Part shown: positions 1,132 through 51,746 of the stretch, piece after piece | Position numbering within the stretch: position 1 is the first letter of the stretch | Layout: each line of letters begins with the position of its first letter | DNA from: a virus | Taxonomy: Duplodnaviria; Caudoviricetes | Virus record (IMG/VR): IMGVR_UViG_3300037249_000989 | Span: 1,016 to 65,015 of that record | Direction: 5' to 3' (one strand) | DNA length: 64,000 nucleotides | Program-made: the position numbers and the translations under genes | The notes under the pieces: model-generated | Told to the model about the DNA's origin: nothing | The model's database searches: none | What the model saw: only the letters and a program-made list of their open reading frames with translations

Positions 1132-2247
1132 ATGAAAAAAGACGAAAAAACTCAAAAAACGACACAATTTTTATCATTTTCTATGGAAAATGTGGAAATA
1201 CCTCAGTTGATAGAACGTTCTTATTCGGGTAAAGATTGGTTCTATTGGGGTAAAGATAACAAACTCCCATATTATCTTTATGGTTTGTATGAAAAATCAT
1301 CTTTGATGCAGTCTATTATAAACACTACATTAAACTTTGTGGTTGGTAATAGCATTGAATCTAAATATAAGCCTAATGAAGATGAAACTTGGGAAGATTT
1401 AATTAAAAATCTTGGTTTGGATTATATGCTTTATGGTGGTTTTGCTATTCAAGTAATGTACAATAAAATGGGTCAAATTCACTCATTAAATTGGCTTGAT
1501 ATGAGAAAATGCCGTACAGATGAAGAACATACTAAAGTTTATTATTCAAAAGAGTTCGCAACCAAATCAAGTCCTAAATATTTAACATTTAAAGTTTGGA
1601 AACGTGGTGAAGAATATAGAAATGAATCTGCTGTTTTCTTCTACACTGGAAGCAAAAGAACCGTTTATCCATTACCACGTTATTCTGGTTCCATTGCAGC
1701 AATTGAAACATCTATCAGAATTGACAACTTCCATTTAAATGCAATCAGAAATAACTTTAGTAATAATACTATTGTTTCTTGGCATCAAGGTGTACCTGAC
1801 GAAGATACTAAAAAACGATTAGAAAAACAATTTAATGAAAAATTTGCTGGTGATGAAAATGCAGGTAAAGTAATATTTACTTTTGATGATGGAAAAGCAG
1901 ATGGAGTTGAAATAACAAATCTTGCAGATGATTAGTTTGATAAGAAATATGAAGCATTGAAATCACAAACTATTACTTCTATTTTTACTGGTTTTTCTGC
2001 ACCATCACAATTATTTGGTTATGCAATCACTGGAAATGTTTTTTCAAAGCAAGAATATCAAGAAGCATTCGACCTTTATTCAAGACTTCAAATTACACCG
2101 ATATAGAATTTATTTAAACGTGTATTTGAGCTCATCTACGGTCTCGAAAATGTAATAGAATTTATTCCATTTGAGCTAAGTACCGAAGATAATGATGAGA
2201 ATGTTGACGAAACTACAAAAATTAATCCTAATGACAACAATGAATAA
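1132..2247 (+). CDS. Portal protein (371 aa, TAG=Gln)
   Basis: Frame stays open through two TAGs (first at 1933-1935) to TAA 2245; W-G-x-D-N-x-L-P-Y-Y-L portal-like N-terminus; same length in copy 2. Confidence 0.75.
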
Positions 2248-2759: not shown

Positions 2760-3305
2760 ATGAATTTTATACAAATATTGAAAAAATTAGAAGCATATTC
2801 ATTATCACTTCCATATGTAAACGAAGTGAACTTAGGTGATATTTATGAGTTTTTAAATGGAAAACCTAATGTGAAATATGCATCAGTTAACATTGATATA
2901 AATAATTCTGTCAGAAATGATGGTTTAATTAGTTATTCTGTCTATTTGTATTATGTTGACAGATTAACCGAAGATAAAACAAACTGGATGGAAGTAAAAA
3001 CCACAGCAGAATAGGTTTTAAACAGCATTATAAATTACGCGGCAAAAATAGGAGACGTGAATGATGGTTGGACGATAAACTATTTTGAGCAACAATTTGC
3101 TGACTATTGTGCTGGTGGTTATGTTCAGTTTAATTTAGAAGTTCCTAATGTAATGGGTGACTGTTTAATAGACGAATACAAAGACGATGATGAAAAACTA
3201 ATTGAACGATTAGAAGAAGCTATTCGTCAATATGAAGAAGATAATGCAGAATTGGCTTTGTTATTAAAAGAGATTCTGCACAAACTGACTGGAGAAATAA
3301 TTTAA
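2760..3305 (+). CDS. Tail terminator/neck-like protein (181 aa, TAG=Gln)
   Basis: Joins ORFs 2760-3014 and 3057-3305 across one TAG. Confidence 0.55.
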
Positions 3306-3356
3306 TTTTATTATTTTTCATTTGAACAAAAATGTACAAAAAATTATTCGAATAAT

Positions 3357-5090
3357 ATGGCAAATTACGATTCAAATTATGCGATTGCACAAGAGATTAG
3401 TGCAAGAATTGGTAACAGCCCAATTCCATTTGACAGCGTTTATTCAATCTGTTTGGAGATTTATAATGAGCTTGGTGGTGAACCTGCTCAATTTGATTCT
3501 GTCTATGAGATCCTTTTGGGTATTTTACCATTAGTTGAAGGTGGAATAGCAACGAAAGTTATTGACGACACGTCTATTCGCTTAGACAAGACTTGGAGCT
3601 CAAGTAAAATAAATTCAGAAATTGAAGCACATAGTGGTGCAACATACACAGCTGGTCAAAATATTTCAATAGATGCAAGTAATGCAATTTCTGCTGATGG
3701 ATATGTTTATGATTCAAGTAATTATTCATTTGCAACAATATACCGTGATAGTGAAGATCCTACTATAATAAACAGCGCATCAGGTGAAGGTGCTTTTGCT
3801 GAAGGTATGGGCACTACTGCTACAGGTATGGGTAACCACGCAGAAGGTGCTGGAACACAAGCAACAGGTTCACAATGTGCACACGCAGAAGGTTTAATGA
3901 CAGTTGCTTCTGGAAATAATTCACACGCAGAGGGCGGAAAATCAATTGCATCAGGAAAAAATTCACACGCAGAAGGTGCCTCAATAAAAAATTATAATCC
4001 TACAACTGCGGCTGGTTCTGGTTCACACGCAGAAGGTGCAAGTACATTAGCATCTGGTAAATATTCACACACAGAAGGTCAAATAACAGTTGCAAGTGGT
4101 GAAGGTGCACACGCAGAAGGTTACCGTACTGTTGCGTCGGGGCACAGTTCACACGCAGAAGGTTTTTTATATAATAGTTCATATCCAGATGATGTAACAA
4201 CCGCATCTGGAAAAGGTGCACACGCTGAAGGTGCTTCAACAAAAGCAACTGGAGATTGTGCTCACGCAGAAGGTGTAAAAACAACTGCACAAAATGAATC
4301 TGAACACGCAGAAGGTAGTTTTAATGTATCTCACAAAGCATCTGATACTTATGGTAATGCAGGCAACACTCAACACTCAGTAGGTATAAACCAAAAAAAC
4401 GCAACTGAAGTAATGCAAAATGGTGACTACTATTTATATGGTGTAGGTGGTTATCAAGGAACAAATACAAAAGTTCAAAATGCATCTATTTTAACATTAC
4501 AAGATGTAATAAACGGAAAAGCAGATGCATATGAAGTTGCAACTACAGCTGATATTGAAGCATTGTTTGCCGAACCTGTTCCACCAACTCCAGGTCCTGC
4601 TGATGATGAAATTTGGTACACAACTGAAAGTGGAAACTTATGGGAACCATATGTTGATAATGGAGATGGAGCAGAAAATACATTATTAAGAGTAAACAAT
4701 GGATCTGCTACAATTCTTTCCAATAATTATGTAAATGGACACGGTGTAATTAAATATAATAACCCAATTACAAGTCTTGATTATTAGTTTGGTACACAAT
4801 ACGACCCATCTGGCACCGGCATTAATTCAACTGATTTAACAATATTAACACTACCAAATTCAATTACATTTGTTGGTTTTATATTAGATGCAACCACACC
4901 ACAATTAGAGTCAATCTATTATAATGGCACCGTTGCAGAGTGTGAAGAAATAGATTGGGATTCATATGATGCAATCGCTGCTAATGATATTAATGAAATC
5001 ATTTGTTTAGATGGTACATATACAATTAGTGGTGGTGGCGGTTCTGGCTCAGGCTCTGGCTCTGGAGGTTCAGGCTCCGGTAATGGTTGA
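3357..5090 (+). CDS. Tail fibre/adhesin with YadA-like (Hep/Hag) head repeats, 577 aa, Gly-Ser C-terminus
   Basis: Many 14-aa S(H/A)AEG..T.ASG repeats; reads through TAG 4785-4787 to TGA 5088. Confidence 0.75.
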
Positions 5091-13654: not shown

Positions 13655-13751
13655 AAAATGGTACTTTTTGTATATCTGTTTTAATTCTTTATATATTTAA
13701 TATAAACTATATCTTTTATAGGTTGCACAGATATACAGTTTGTACCATTTT
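13655..13751. promoter_or_regulatory. Inverted pair of 24-bp operator-like sites AAAATGGTAC-N4-TGTATATCTG
   Basis: 13655-13678 and inverted 13728-13751; third copy 20173-20196; all conserved in copy 2 (43537, 43611, 51431). Confidence 0.65.
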
Positions 13752-13851
13752 TAGCAAATTGAATTTTTTCCAAAATTTTCTTAAATAAATAATAAAAGAA
13801 GCAAGTTTTAGCAAATTGAATTTTTAGCAAAACGAACTTAAATAAATAATA
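13751..13851 (+). promoter_or_regulatory. Middle-promoter-like motif TTAGCAAATTGAATTTT-N-TTAAATAAATAATA (tandem pair)
   Basis: Copies at 13751, 13808, 14845, 20273, 43634, 44679, 51539, each upstream of non-structural TAG-containing operons. Confidence 0.6.
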
Positions 13852-13926
13852 AAAGAAACCTATTTTAGAAGTTGCAAAAAAACTTTTTAGAACCGAAATA
13901 AATAATATATAAAGATGTTTTTATAA

Positions 13927-14052: not shown

Positions 14053-14844
14053 ATGAACTAGATTGACACATTTTTCGATTGCTACATCGATTTACAAACA
14101 CAAACATTCAACCAAATTGTTTTAGAATGGGGCAAATCCTCAGTTGCATTAAAAAGATGGTTAAACACCTATCACCCAGAAATATTAAATAATAAAGATT
14201 ACTCTAGAAAAGCTGGTCTCAATGCAGATATATTTCTTCCATATAGAAATAATGGTTTATGGTCAGGTTCTGATGCAATATCTCGTTTAAAACTTGCAGC
14301 TAAAGCAGAAGTTGTTATTATCTTTAGTAACTCTGAGTTAACTGAAACCGAACAACAAGTTATTTATAAAACTGAGTGCTTGCGTTTATGGACTAGAATA
14401 AACTCATTAGTAACTCCATTTTCATTTTAGCAATTCAAATCATTATTAGATGATTGTTACACTGAAGTAATAAATAATTGGGATGATGAAGTTGAAATGT
14501 TGCAACAAAAGCAAGAGAGCTTCAAACCTAGAAGAAAACAAACTTTATATCATTACACAGTTAATGACTTTGATAATATATATCCATTTATGACTTTACG
14601 TCAAGCATATGAAGATTGGATGGAATACAAATTTCCATATTTATTAAAACGTTATAAAGATGAAAAACTCAGAGCATTTAAAGTTGAAGCAATGCAAAAT
14701 GAGTGGAGTGATGAATTAAAAGAAACCAAGTTTAAAAACCTCAAAGCTGACTTAGAACTCATTAAAATCAAAGAACCAAACAAACTTGCATTCAGAAAAT
14801 TATTAGACAGATATAATATCGAATACAAACAAAAAAAGCACTAA
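14053..14844 (+). CDS. Conserved hypothetical protein (263 aa, TAG at codon 3); possible replication or regulatory protein
   Basis: Continuous code-15 frame, conserved at 43887-44690; function inferred only from position. Confidence 0.65.
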
Positions 14845-14920
14845 TTAGCAAATTGAATTTTTAATAAAACGAACTTAAATAAATAATAAAAGAAACAATA
14901 AAAACTAACATTTAAATATT

Positions 14921-15526
14921 ATGTTCAAATATATTTCTGCTGAGAATTTTAATTAGATTAACTGGCAAAACTTACAAAGCAAACCATTCGAGGATAGTTG
15001 GTCACGTTACATTATGAAAGAACTATTTAACAAATATAGCCCTGATGTTAAATCAGTATTTGAATATCAAGGTAATAGTTGTTTAGACCTTAAACTCACA
15101 ATGGCTAACAAAACCCATACAGGAATTGAAATTAAATTCCGTAAAGAAAAATCTGATACTTATCCAAGTCACCTTATAAACGATGAAAAGTTCTTCGCTA
15201 TTTGCAAACGTGCTGATAAGAAATGGATCCAAGCCGCATATTTATCATCAATCTGGTATGATGGCGTTATTTGGGTTAGTAATATATTTGGTGAATATGA
15301 AGTAGAATAGCATTTATAGAACAAGACTACTAATGTATCTGCAACTACTGATTACAAAAAAGAATGGAAAACCTGTTATTGCTATAAACCATAGAACGTA
15401 TTCTATTTCTGTTATGAATATGATGATGAACTTAATAAATACATTCCTTATTTCTCAACAGAACCTATTGATGTTGCTCAATTAAACAAAGAAGCTGAAG
15501 GTCTAACAAGTTGCCAATTATTCTGA
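14921..15526 (+). CDS. PD-(D/E)XK-like nuclease (201 aa, TAG=Gln)
   Basis: CLD..L..GIEIK motif; several TAGs in one open frame. Confidence 0.5.
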
Positions 15527-17113: not shown

Positions 17114-17141
17114 AAAAGAGAGCTTTCAGGGCTCTCTTTTT
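17114..17141. terminator. Bidirectional terminator between convergent early operons
   Basis: AAAAGAGAGC-TTTCAGG-GCTCTCTTTT; identical at 47499-47525. Confidence 0.85.
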
Positions 17142-17144
17142 AAT

Positions 17145-17321
17145 TTAGAATGGAAATAAGTTGGGATTGTTATGCTTTAGTCTGTACATATAAACAGGTG
17201 ATAGGTTTTTAACCAGATAACGAAGATAAAGCCGGTAATGTGTCGGTTTTTTCAGACCTGAACGACACCAGTTTAATTTACCGGTATTATATAGTTTGCA
17301 ACGAATACTAAATGGGTTCAT
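17145..17321 (-). CDS. Basic hypothetical protein (58 aa), variable cassette
   Basis: ATG directly downstream of the 27-bp repeat; absent from copy 2. Confidence 0.55.
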   Translation of the reverse strand: MNPFSIRCKLYNTGKLNWCRSGLKKPTHYRLYLRYLVKNLSPVYMYRLKHNNPNLFPF

Positions 17322-17329
17322 AATATATA

Positions 17330-17356
17330 ACAGTTTTTACCGAGTGTCTCTCGTTT
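17330..17356 (-). repeat. 27-bp cassette repeat (minus strand AAACGAGAGACACTCGGTAAAAACTGT)
   Basis: Also at 48216-48243 and 48434-48461; CGAG-N5-CTCG hairpin just upstream of start codons. Confidence 0.8.
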
Positions 17357-17400
17357 TACGTTATTTTTTATTTTGTTCTGGTTATTAAGGATTGGAGATG

Positions 17401-17625
17401 TTACTCTCCAATCCAAGATATAAGTTCTCCGTTCCTAAAATCGAAGATGTGAAATAATTGGTAGGTTTCTCCGTTCATTTTAACGATTTCTCCGATTTGG
17501 ATGTTGGATTGGTTTTGGGGTCTCATCCGTTTGATTCCTTGATTTTTGGTGAGGTTGTAAAAAATGTACAGTTTCTCCTCATCACTCTTTTTAATTCTCT
17601 CAACAATAAAATTTTTCTTTTCCAT
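17401..17625 (-). CDS. Hypothetical protein (74 aa, TAG-free)
   Basis: Orthologue at 48516-48752. Confidence 0.7.
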   Translation of the reverse strand: MEKKNFIVERIKKSDEEKLYIFYNLTKNQGIKRMRPQNQSNIQIGEIVKMNGETYQLFHIFDFRNGELISWIGE

Positions 17626-18922
17626 AATTTTAAAATTTTTAAATTAAACATTTCAATTAACTTTACGGAAATGGTATAACGGAATCAGAAAAAAGTTTGG
17701 TTTGGACCCTAAAAAAGTTATAAATTCATAACAGGAGGAAATAAAAACTTAAAGATAGTATATAAAATTCATTCTAAGATACCAGATTTGACACCAGACA
17801 CACCGAAATAACCCAGTAATATAAATTATTAGGCTAGCAGAAAAGAAGTCCCCAGAATCAAATTATAATCTGGGAACGAAAAGCAGTAAGAAACGAATCA
17901 GGTTTGCCTTATATTAACAGATTAACGAAAAACGTATATATAAGAACCAGAATTTGCCTGATATAAACTAATAAAAAAGAAATAAATTCAGATACACTCA
18001 GATATAAAGAAAGATAGATATATAACAGATACACCCAATATATAAAGTAAGTAAAGAGATAGAGTAATAAAAAACACACAGGACGCATTAAATCAGGTAA
18101 TATATATAAATCTATAATACAGATAGTTTGAAGTCACCAGAATGTGAATATGGACTATCAGGAATATTTTTAAATATTTAATATACTCACGGAAATCGGA
18201 TATCCGGCTAATGTGCTGATACTAGTTAAGGATAGGGAATAGTAATAGAAATAAAGCATTCTAATAGGTTTAGACTTGTTCAGAAGAATCAGGAAATCGC
18301 AGGAACGCGGGATATCTGGCCCTCTGGGCCTTAGTTTTTACATATAATTTTAATTTGGAAAAAACTGAAATAAATAATATGAACCATTTTATTTGGTTCA
18401 AAAATAAATTTTTTCATTGATAATTTTTAATTAATTTTTTAAGGGAGTTAAACCTGCGACAGGCTAAGCTCCCATTTTTTTGGGCACAATTCAGATTTTA
18501 TCAATTATAATATAATTGATAATTATATACTATATTGACCTAAAACAGGCGATTACCTGACCACCGAGCTACGCTCATTAGCAGATTTATCGCAATAATT
18601 CCAATAATTCCATTTAATCAGATTACTCAGCCACGACCGATTATCTCATTTTGCTAGTGGATCAGGTAATCAGATGTTCAGATGAATCGGGTTTCCGGTT
18701 TTTCTGCTAATCTGCTGGTCTGTCTCCTTATATATACGCGCGTATTGGGAACCTAAAATTAGGGCAAACTCGTATATAATTATCAATAGTATTAGACCAA
18801 AGCTAACACCCTGAAAATCACTGGAATAAAAGTGCATTTTTTCGTCATTTTTTTGTCTAAAAATTTTCATATGTCAAAAATTTTTATTAAATTTGCAATG
18901 TATTTTAAAAACAGTAAAACAT
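17626..18922. other. Conserved palindrome-rich non-coding region (candidate att/junction, origin or packaging region)
   Basis: No conserved ORF; strongly similar to 48753-50164; 25-bp and 12-bp palindromes, 15-bp inverted repeats, CAGAT motifs. Confidence 0.55.
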
Positions 18923-20095: not shown

Positions 20096-20349
20096 TTTAA
20101 ACTAAGTAGGTAGTTCCATTGTTAAACATTAAATAGAAACAATAAATAATTCAGTATTAAATAATGTGCCATAAAATGGTACATTCTGTATATCTGTTTT
20201 AATTATTATATATATTATATATACTATATAAACTAGTTTAGCACCCAAATTTTTAAACCTACGTTAGACCCTTTAGCAAATTGAATTTTGACCAAAATTT
20301 TCTTAAATAAATAATATATAGAAACAATAAAAATTAAAACTCACACATT

Positions 20350-20502
20350 ATGATTACATTATTATCTATAGCATCTGTTTTAGCAACAGTATTAAACGTT
20401 ACTATTATTTTTGGAGCAGGTTATGTAACTGCATACTACATCCAATATTTAAAAAACAAAAATTCAAACATCACATTAAATGAAAAATCCAAAGAAGCTT
20501 GA
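20350..20502 (+). CDS. Small membrane protein (50 aa)
   Basis: Hydrophobic N-terminus; conserved in copy 2. Confidence 0.55.
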   Translation: MITLLSIASVLATVLNVTIIFGAGYVTAYYIQYLKNKNSNITLNEKSKEA

Positions 20503-43477: not shown

Positions 43478-43886
43478 AGTTTAAATAGTTTATTTAAATA
43501 TTTATTGAAGAATAAAGAAGCGTAACATTATTACAAAAAATGGTACTTTTTGTATATCTGTTTTAATTATTTATATATTTAATATAAACTATTACTTTAT
43601 TATAGCTCCACAGATATACAGTTTGTACCATTTTTAGCAAATTGAATTTTTAACAAAACGAACTTAAATAAATAATAAAAGAAACCTATTTTAGAAGTTG
43701 CAAAAAACTTTTTAGAACCGAAATAAATAAAATATAAAGATGTTTTTATAAAGCTCTCACACCTTTAATGCATTATAAAAACGAAATAAATAAAAAGAAG
43801 ATTAGTTGGTTTTGTATTTGAAAGTAGAAGGTGTGAGCTACGAGTAAAATACAGAACCAATTTTATAAAAACAAACTCACACCGAT

Positions 43887-47460: not shown

Positions 47461-47528
47461 TGCGAAACTGATAAGTAATATAATTTATTAGCAAAAAGAA
47501 AAGAGAGCTTTCAGGGCTCTCTTTTTAA

Positions 47529-48206
47529 TTATAGGTAATTTTCCTGTTTATATGATTGGGTCTTCCAATATTTAAGTTCCGGCTTCTCCGCAACAACAAC
47601 CGGTTCATATCCTTGTTTCAAAAGGCCATTACGGGTTATGTTCTCGCGCATCCAGCCTAGTGCAAAGTCTGAATATATGTGCTTTTTCCATCCGTTACTG
47701 TACAAGGAACTCATAAATGCAGAGACTTGGTTTCCTTTCAGTTTAGACAGGGTTTGTGCCAACTGCATATTTGCAAAACTGCGATTGTGGCTGTTATTCA
47801 TTATCGGACTGAAATCTCTTTCAGTACTTTTTAAAGCATCCTTGATGAACTCGTATGCCATATCATTCCAGAACTTCTCGTTCAATTGCTCCAACAGACG
47901 GTAATTGAAGTTCTGTTCGTCCTTTTTGCCGTTGACCCATAAATTTCCGGTCAGGATATTTTCAACAGAGAATGGCATATAGTACCCTTCGTAAGCGAAG
48001 AAATGATTGTTCTTGCTGAAATAGGTTGAGTTGCAATAGTCCTCGATATGGGAACAGGAAATTTTGGGATTGTCTCTGTGTGCATCTGCGATGCTGTTAT
48101 AAATTTTAGTTGCATAATTGTAGTTTCCCTTTTCGTCAAACTCACCTTTGATAGTCCACACTTTTGGGCTGTTTTCGAATCGGTCTAATAATTTTTTTGT
48201 TGCCAT
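47529..48206 (-). CDS. Variable cassette gene, 225 aa, possible NUMOD1-like HTH N-terminus
   Basis: YNSIADAHRD..ISCSHIEDYC..FFAY pattern; preceded by the 27-bp repeat. Confidence 0.6.
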   Translation of the reverse strand: MATKKLLDRFENSPKVWTIKGEFDEKGNYNYATKIYNSIADAHRDNPKISCSHIEDYCNSTYFSKNNHFFAYEGYYMPFSVENILTGNLWVNGKKDEQNFNYRLLEQLNEKFWNDMAYEFIKDALKSTERDFSPIMNNSHNRSFANMQLAQTLSKLKGNQVSAFMSSLYSNGWKKHIYSDFALGWMRENITRNGLLKQGYEPVVVAEKPELKYWKTQSYKQENYL

Positions 48207-48241
48207 AATTTTAAGACAGTTTTTGCCGAGTGTCTCTCGTT

Positions 48242-48424
48242 TTAAAATTTTTTATTGTTATCAGTTATAATTTGAGCCGGACCTACGTTAATAGTGATAG
48301 ATACCTGTGCATTCGGATTTAAACGGTTCAGTTCTGATATAAGTTTATGGAACTCGTTAACCGTATAATTTGGAATTGTCAGATCACAAGAATCTGATTT
48401 GATAGTTACGTTTTTGATACGCAT
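48242..48424 (-). CDS. Variable cassette gene, 60 aa
   Basis: Lies between two 27-bp repeats. Confidence 0.6.
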   Translation of the reverse strand: MRIKNVTIKSDSCDLTIPNYTVNEFHKLISELNRLNPNAQVSITINVGPAQIITDNNKKF

Positions 48425-48515
48425 AATTTTGGGACAGTTTTTGTCGAGTGTCTCTCGTTTTAAGTTTATTTTTTATTTTGATTAGTTTATAGTTTGGACC
48501 AGAGAACTGGAGATT

Positions 48516-48752
48516 TTACTCTCCAAGTTCTCCTGTATAAAGGATCATTTGTCCGTTTGGTCGATCGAAGATCTGGAGTAAAATGTAGGTTTCTCCGTCC
48601 ATTTTAACGATTTCTCCGATTTGGATGTTGGATTCTCCTGATTTCGGTCTCATCCGTTTGATTCCTTGATTTTTAGTGAGGTTGTAAAAAATGTACAGTT
48701 TGGGTTCATTACTTTTTTTAATCTTTTTAATAACAAAATTTTTACTCATCAT
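48516..48752 (-). CDS. Hypothetical protein (copy 2)
   Basis: Orthologue of 17401-17625. Confidence 0.7.
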   Translation of the reverse strand: MMSKNFVIKKIKKSNEPKLYIFYNLTKNQGIKRMRPKSGESNIQIGEIVKMDGETYILLQIFDRPNGQMILYTGELGE

Positions 48753-51355: not shown

Positions 51356-51746
51356 TTTAACTAAGTAGGTAGTTCCATTTTAAACATTAAATAGAAAAAA
51401 TAAATAATTCAGTATTAAATAATGTGCCATAAAATGGTACATTCTGTATATCTGTTTTAATTATTATATATATTAAATAAACTATATAAACTAGTTAACT
51501 AGTTTAGCAACCAAAATTTTAGACCTGTTTTAGACACTTTAGAAAATTGAATTTTGACCAAAAATTTCTTAAATAAATAATATATAGAAGCAATAAAAAT
51601 TAAACCTCACACAACTATGATTACATTATTATCTATAGCATCTGTTTTAGCAACATTATTAAACGTTACCGTTATTTTTGGAGCAGGTTATGTAACTGCA
51701 TATTACATCCAATATTTAAAAAATAAAAAATCAAACATTACATTAA

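Follow-up and report, generated by a model that had tools for sequence, protein, structure and literature searches.

A widespread short leader motif at a variable gene slot of a cattle-gut phage of Bacteroidota

The 27-bp repeat found upstream of exchangeable genes in a cattle-gut phage belongs to a widespread leader motif located 7-10 bases before start codons, and for this reason it looks like an expression signal where recombination also happens, not like a dedicated gene-capture site. On balance, the repeat is probably a portable mRNA leader which also supplies homology for a PeSL-like shuffling of genes. What is new is the leader motif itself, which is widespread in phages and mobile elements of Bacteroidota and is shared with one host gene.

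The window, meaning the whole stretch of 64,000 nucleotides that was analysed, covers nearly all of a 65,015-bp IMG/VR record. The record consists of two head-to-tail units of ~31-33 kb each (about 1-32600 and about 33650-64000), which differ by indels and are 72-96% identical by block, with most blocks at 80-95%. Homologues of the conserved 74-aa gene described below occur on contigs of 29-33 kb. Since complete relatives of the window phage also measure 29-33 kb, and the closest of them (33,452 bp) carries direct terminal repeats, the record most likely represents two related genomes (strains) of ~32 kb joined by assembly. Comparing one unit with the other is therefore a comparison between relatives.

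The window phage is a TAG-recoded phage of the cattle gut (rumen) with a host in the phylum Bacteroidota. Most plus-strand genes need TAG as a sense codon, and under this reading most of the ORFs become joined into long tiled genes. TAG is absent from the minus-strand mini-operon and its neighbours, as had been predicted for the genes of the slot. No tRNA gene was found in the record by ARAGORN, so that the source of TAG suppression does not lie in the record. The sequencing run X1, a bovine gut metagenome, contains 0.90 of the sampled words of the stretch, and its contig pieces align without mismatch. Parts of the stretch are contained in runs of 15 studies, many of them labelled bovine gut and most with shares of 0.2-0.33; among the sequencing runs matching the stretch, none is labelled RNA.

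The mini-operon is composed of a conserved first gene, one or two modules of motif plus gene, and a bidirectional terminator, in this order (Table 1). The pattern AAACGAGAGACACTCGRYAAAAACTGT has three exact matches in the window, all of them on the minus strand, and none in 100 shuffles. Its copies are located about 9 nt upstream of the start codons of the variable genes, one of them before a 58-aa gene in the first genome copy and two before unrelated genes of 60 and 225 aa in the second, just as in the original prediction. Copy 1 scores 49.3 bits with the covariance model R1. The sequences around copies 2a and 2b form a repeated unit of ~86 nt with 83% identity, and the stop codon of the 60-aa gene overlaps the first base of motif 2b. 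The products of the 58-, 60- and 225-aa genes are mutually unrelated and have no kin elsewhere in the window. Hints of a NUMOD-like 225-aa protein were dismissed, as they were at chance level only (ESM Atlas, score 0.81).

Table 1. Coordinates of the mini-operon parts and of a further repeat family (positions in the window unless a relative is named).
Feature	Position	Strand	Remarks
Leader motif, copy 1 (AAACGAGAGACACTCGGTAAAAACTGT)	17330-17356	minus	stem CGAG/CTCG, loop AGACA, A-run, CTGT; ATG of the 58-aa gene 8 nt after CTGT
Leader motif, copy 2a	48434-48460	minus	spacer AC; ATG of the 60-aa gene 9 nt after CTGT
Leader motif, copy 2b	48216-48242	minus	spacer GC; ATG of the 225-aa gene 9 nt after CTGT
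Slot gene, 58 aa, genome copy 1	17145-17321	minus	no family; one known homologue (93% identity)
Slot gene, 60 aa, genome copy 2	48242-48424	minus	handful of relatives
Slot gene, 225 aa, genome copy 2	47529-48206	minus	no family; 12 homologue clusters (43-76% identity)
Conserved first gene, 74 aa, genome copy 1	17401-17625	minus	63 homologue clusters
Conserved first gene, orthologue, 78 aa, genome copy 2	48516-48752	minus	
Bidirectional intrinsic terminator, genome copy 1	17114-17140	both	ends the slot; convergent with plus-strand genes
Bidirectional terminator, genome copy 2	47499-47525	both	identical to that of copy 1
Terminator in relatives	L004 1325-1351; L005 about 1268-1294		
Hairpin at the end of the 74-aa gene, spanning its stop codon (GGAGA..TCTCC)	17394-17409	minus	direct reading
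Conserved stretch upstream of the 74-aa gene (..TTTTTTCTGATTCCGTTATACCATTTCC..)	17661-17700	minus	inferred from sequence comparison; putative promoter
Second repeat family	13749-13887, 14843-14924, 20271-20352, 43632-43713, 51537-51618		upstream of plus-strand genes

The first gene and the terminator are common to both genome copies, as had been noticed before; the 74- and 78-aa first genes are 69% identical. The AlphaFold model of the 74-aa protein is small, all-beta and of low confidence (pLDDT 59.5). A hairpin spans the stop codon of the 74-aa gene, and at its position in the relative L005 (about 527-548) GGGAA..TTCCC is found, a compensatory change; the hairpin has no U-tract. In the relatives L004 and L005 the terminator loop (GAGAGC-TTTCAGG-GCTCTC) is the reverse complement of that in the window (GAGAGC-CCTGAAA-GCTCTC), a small inversion between the stem arms. 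Judged by its conservation, the stretch upstream of the 74-aa gene is the putative promoter of the mini-operon, and within it TACCATTT resembles the -7 box of Bacteroidota. A further variable spot adjoins this presumed promoter at 17969-18065, where the X2 and X4 contig has 215 other letters instead of ~95 nt of non-coding sequence.

The content of the slot was read in four genomes, namely the two window units, the complete relative L004 (33.4 kb) and the metagenome contig L005, besides which ~60 other contigs encode homologues of the 74-aa gene; at least two relatives came from searches with degenerate patterns (74-aa alignment). All four genomes share the conserved first gene and the terminator. 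Between them, the first window unit carries the 58-aa gene with the motif and the second the 60-aa and then the 225-aa gene, with the motif ahead of each. L005 has a 212-aa DUF1281_C/Api92-like gene behind a one-base variant of the motif, and L004 has an unrelated 71-aa gene, with no motif in its entire genome. The slot thus holds five unrelated genes in four genomes, which bears out the predicted variability. A family was found for one of the five, the DUF1281_C/Api92-like gene; the other four are without family.

The breakpoints of the exchange coincide with the two shared signals in the comparison of the window units. Homology stops at the terminator (17148/47534) and is restored precisely where the motif faces the gene (17330/48434). 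One contig of X1 links 17145 with 17330, but with just 29 nt on one side of the joint this counts as weak evidence. In the runs X2 and X4 the flanks are covered and 17140-17307 has little or no coverage, a hole that by itself proves nothing. In the comparison with L004, the left breakpoint is located ~25-30 nt upstream of the motif position, therefore the leader is part of the swapped segment in this case and some exchanges bypass the motif. Since this complete relative (genome G314, locus L004) has a slot gene free of the motif, the motif is dispensable. Several clusters of the 225-aa family lie on contigs equal in size to those with homologues of the 74-aa gene, so that this family probably recurs in the slot. 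A further ORF, coiled-coil-like and of 65 aa, is found in L004 (259-456, minus strand of the locus) within the 1.2-kb non-coding region, where the window is without a long ORF.

The motif extends beyond this phage. A search with its 21-base core against one genome per prokaryote species gave three matches, all of them in Bacteroidota. Two are located 7-9 nt before the ATG of panB (PF02548, 376 bits) in Barnesiella-like genomes. The third lies 9 nt before a DUF932 gene on a lake Bacteroidetes contig, a mobile element that also encodes ParB-like and replication-initiator-like genes. Within the Barnesiella-like family of Bacteroidales the motif precedes panB in 8 of 14 genomes, and a ninth shows one loop substitution. 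It occurs as a single copy per genome, is kept while its flanks diverge, and follows a -7 box (TATACCTTTG) at a distance of 27-40 nt. In the panB leaders (L092-L100) a second conserved block, ATAACACATAYTAACGTGTAAC, was observed upstream of the motif in most genomes of the family, and the leader in its entirety may be an RNA that regulates the synthesis of pantothenate. In samples of Bacteroidales outside that family no motif was found, neither in 299 genomes with up to 3 mismatches, nor in 129 with flexible spacing, nor in 101 with the CGTG variant of the stem.

The exact phage-type motif is absent from other IMG/VR contigs. In GenBank phages and PLSDB plasmids matches were at chance level, except for four unannotated human-faecal 'Bacteriophage sp.' scaffolds, and in one GenBank scaffold from human faeces the stem reads CGTG/CACG, a compensatory change relative to CGAG/CTCG. 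A scan of IMG/VR that allowed any base at the two inner stem pairs then yielded at least 118 loci, with 124 matches listed. Among these listed matches, the stem is CGTG/CACG in 115, CGAG/CTCG in 6 and non-complementary in 3, so that 121 of the 124 have complementary stems. The first ATG follows 7-10 nt downstream in 119 of the 124 listed, compared with ~6% expected, and in none of the three with a non-complementary stem.

The matches listed place the motif 7-10 nt before an ATG in more than 115 phage contigs of IMG/VR and in front of ~20 unrelated gene families. One conserved locus of large human-gut phage contigs accounts for 93 of them, and the remaining listed matches precede at least 13 other genes, most of which have no Pfam or PHROG family. 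Whole phage records carry 0-5 copies. The proposed search for the repeat across Bacteroidota gave a divided answer: genes at the slot are indeed swapped, but the repeat is not private to it, being a widespread motif 7-10 nt before start codons in phages, a mobile element and panB. At the major locus (L111-L227; seen in L110 at about 333-420), the 27-aa ORF behind the commonest copy of the motif ends at a TAG. The large human-gut phages of this locus may read TAG as sense, which would make that gene longer.

The element has a size of 22-27 nt and comprises a hairpin with a stem of 4 bp, in which (C/G)G(A/U)G pairs with its complement around the loop AG(A/G)CA, a spacer of 1-4 nt, a run of four to six A residues and CUG(U), which is followed after 7-10 nt by the AUG. 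Among 33 non-redundant instances, stem pair 3 reads U-A 18 times and A-U 15 times, with no unpaired case; the covariation score is 0.216 against 0.101 in shuffles, and 0 of 500 shuffles reached the observed value. The outer pair flips from C-G to G-C in diverged copies detected with model R1 (stem GGUG/CACC), and copies with the loop AGGCA and the tail CUGA were also found at the same loci. Two stem pairs thus show compensatory changes, though as few as two or three events in the past may account for the covariation. The folding energy of the window hairpin (CGAG/CTCG, 5-nt loop) is no better than that of shuffles (z about 0), and the support for the hairpin is for this reason the covariation in the wider family and not stability. 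Of the '27-bp hairpin repeat' described originally, the repeat is real and its stem covaries, but the stem has only 4 bp and does not fold better than shuffles do.

The central C of the loop is invariant in IMG/VR, and the loop and CTGT are strictly invariant across very different phages, which points to a specific partner beyond what a generic unstructured leader would need. A preQ1-I-like pseudoknot between ACA and UGU was considered and is sterically possible, but it is unsupported by the variants, as loop position 15 (A/G/C) and tail position 32 (U/A) change without correlation. A comparison with the 5' 870 nt of one host-family 16S rRNA showed no complementarity beyond chance. Rfam 15 gave no relevant match with E-values up to 1-10 for the window stretch, the host leaders, the mobile-element locus and four loci with the CGTG variant, and a full-text literature search with the motif strings returned only unrelated primers. 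The motif family is apparently uncatalogued.

Regarding its position in the transcript, a -7 box of the Bacteroidota consensus TAnnTTTG (PMC7366714) was found 8-58 nt upstream in 35 of 68 distinct contexts, compared with 5.2% of random windows. As the distance to the promoter varies and the distance to the ATG is fixed, the motif would most simply be a 5'-UTR element coupled to the start codon. Within an operon like that of the window it would be an intercistronic leader.

In another group of phages up to four genes in a row each have the motif in front, and the subset carried differs from relative to relative. Named by their first residues and their length in aa, the genes of L150 are MKRIGG 139, MKASFED 79, MFEDKK 208 and MEKKFIL 372 (minus strand, 3300-4400). 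L122 carries MCFNQEQ 101, MKASFED 79 and MFEDKK 208, whereas L115, L176, L189 and L211 carry MKRIGG 139 and MEKKFIL 354-390. L205 has MRASFED 79, a member of the MKASFED family, and MFEDKK 208, and in L175 the new gene MSKYRIT 192 is followed by MFEDKK 208. The array genes of the L150 group are ORFans. The repeated unit of this group has a length of ~110 nt and consists of a strong stem-loop, in which compensatory variants occur, followed by an AT-rich stretch and then by the motif. At the L205 junction the left flank and the loop come from the first unit and the tail from the second, the arrangement expected after a crossover within the unit.

Taken as a portable leader, the motif would act in the mRNA as a self-contained element, independent of the gene behind it, and would let each downstream gene initiate translation or keep a stable or protected 5' end by itself. 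In the window phage it would do so for every gene of the mini-operon after the first one. In cells infected by more than one relative, homologous recombination at the motif and the terminator would then swap, add or delete genes, with these two serving as seams since they are the only sequences common to otherwise unrelated inserts. The action at the RNA level, the effect on translation or stability and the role of recombination at the motif as the cause of shuffling are what we infer.

Members of Bacteroidia do not use Shine-Dalgarno (SD) sequences; what matters for initiation there are A residues and little structure ahead of the start codon (PMC6847099, PMC7797042). A more specific and speculative version, to which we assign a low probability, is that the motif is an RNA element recruiting or gating ribosomes, a stand-in for the SD sequence that Bacteroidota phages and mobile elements carry along with accessory genes, so as to ensure translation by ribosomes that disregard SD signals, and that one host lineage would have co-opted for panB. 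The invariant loop and CUGU would in this case touch the 30S subunit at a defined site or bind a conserved host factor.

The same invariance of the AG(A/G)CA loop, the A-run and CTGT would also suit an operator for a trans-acting regulator, such as an RNA-binding repressor, a small RNA, a metabolite sensed as by a riboswitch or a DNA-binding dimer, which would exert coordinate on/off control and not constitutive initiation; the inverted repeat could just as well persist as the site of a dimeric DNA-binding protein. Such an operator would match the single copy before one biosynthetic gene in host genomes, which is typical of a dedicated regulatory leader, and the motif is placed where a bound factor would block the 30S subunit. 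However, no protein is common to the motif-bearing loci examined, a preQ1-I-like pseudoknot is unsupported by the variants, Rfam gave no match, and it is hard to see why genes as different as phage ORFans, a DUF932 gene and panB should respond to one ligand. We regard the operator as unlikely.

A promoter-type DNA element is quite improbable. It would be read by a phage-modified host RNA polymerase or one with an alternative sigma factor, or act as an N4-like hairpin promoter, and would make each gene its own transcription unit with a very short leader, which would turn the array into a true equivalent of PeSLs, built of modules of promoter plus gene. The individual motif copy of each array gene agrees with this, as does the strong, potentially terminating stem-loop before every copy in the L150 group, which is also found in PeSLs (PMC2839356). 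A fixed short distance to the ATG would also be expected from a promoter for near-leaderless mRNA. Against it stands the -7 box upstream of the motif in half of the distinct contexts, including host panB; because this canonical box lies upstream, the motif would be transcribed in those contexts. Moreover, a housekeeping gene such as panB is not expected to rely on a phage-type promoter, and direct reading revealed no TAnnTTTG inside the motif unit. A sigma-70 reading of the unit (GAGACA, 17 nt, TAWAWT) was rejected, as such matches are no commoner than in shuffles and the start would fall inside the gene.

The analogy to PeSLs that had been drawn at the outset holds, since recombination between repeated regulatory units fits the slot and is reinforced by the motif-led arrays in other phages. 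In T4-type phages, PeSLs (promoter-early stem-loop cassettes) combine a strong sigma-70 promoter with a terminator stem-loop; differences between relatives are bounded by these units, and homologous recombination between them has been proposed (Arbiol et al. 2010, PMC2839356; Comeau et al. 2014, PMC4122927). Common to both is a short conserved regulatory unit repeated before non-essential ORFans, with insertions, deletions and replacements bounded by the units. In contrast to PeSLs, the unit described here has no recognisable promoter, its 4-bp hairpin without a U-tract is not terminator-like, it appears to be an mRNA leader at a fixed distance of 7-10 nt from the ATG, and its hosts are Bacteroidota instead of Proteobacteria.

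A site for site-specific recombination or capture, either similar to attC of integrons or used by the IS1595-type transposase encoded 1.3 kb from the slot, is highly improbable: the repeats do bound the variable genes, with two repeats where there are two genes, but no tyrosine or serine recombinase was found in the 65-kb record (PF00589 and PF00239 searched, with positive control genomes), nothing ties the slot to the transposase, the motif sits 5' of the genes at a fixed distance from the ATG and occurs singly before the first genes of transcripts and before host panB, a 27-bp element with a 4-bp stem is unlike attC, and one relative has a slot gene without the motif. The original prediction of a dedicated attC-like capture site is not sustained by these observations. 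IS1595 elements act on their own terminal inverted repeats. The attC sites of integrons measure ~57-141 bp, possess paired R and L boxes and are located at the 3' end of each cassette. The slot resembles an integron in its promoterless genes of one orientation with a repeated element at each junction. It differs in having no IntI-type integrase and in an element of 27 bp that lies on the 5' side of the gene, is not organised into R and L boxes and also occurs outside arrays.

Other known systems share single traits with the slot. As in phage morons and at lambdoid boundary sequences, an accessory unit on the opposite strand with its own terminator lies between core blocks and differs in content between relatives, but here each inserted gene is headed by a defined and widely shared leader motif. 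The intercistronic RNase III sites of T7 and the RegA operators of T4 are likewise conserved RNA signals at the starts of numerous early or accessory genes, where they provide processing or translational control for each gene separately. RNase III requires stems much longer than 4 bp, and RegA of T4 is an RNA-binding translational repressor of many early mRNAs. Sequence, size and host machinery are different here, and no RegA-like protein was identified. The preQ1-I riboswitch (RF00522) is similar in its tiny hairpin and A-rich tail near the start codon, but it gave no cmscan match and its defining pseudoknot pairing is unsupported. The pan RNA motif (RF01749) also precedes panB but gave no cmscan match either; it has a long stem with two bulged A residues and is known from other phyla (PMC2864571).

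The recruitment of ribosomes without SD pairing in Bacteroidota is only partly understood, and the motif offers a compact handle on it, with panB in a cultivable member of the Barnesiella-like family as a tractable case. It may also become a portable expression part for the engineering of gut Bacteroidales. Furthermore, the slot extends the PeSL idea of repeated regulatory units as seams of gene exchange to gut and rumen phages of Bacteroidota, and the motif provides a simple sequence tag for slots of accessory, possibly counter-defence, genes.

Finally, a second repeat family of ~80 nt (TTTAGCAAATTGAATTTTT ... CTTAAATAAATAATA) was observed in the window, with six copies upstream of plus-strand genes. 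It looks like a class of phage promoters or operators.
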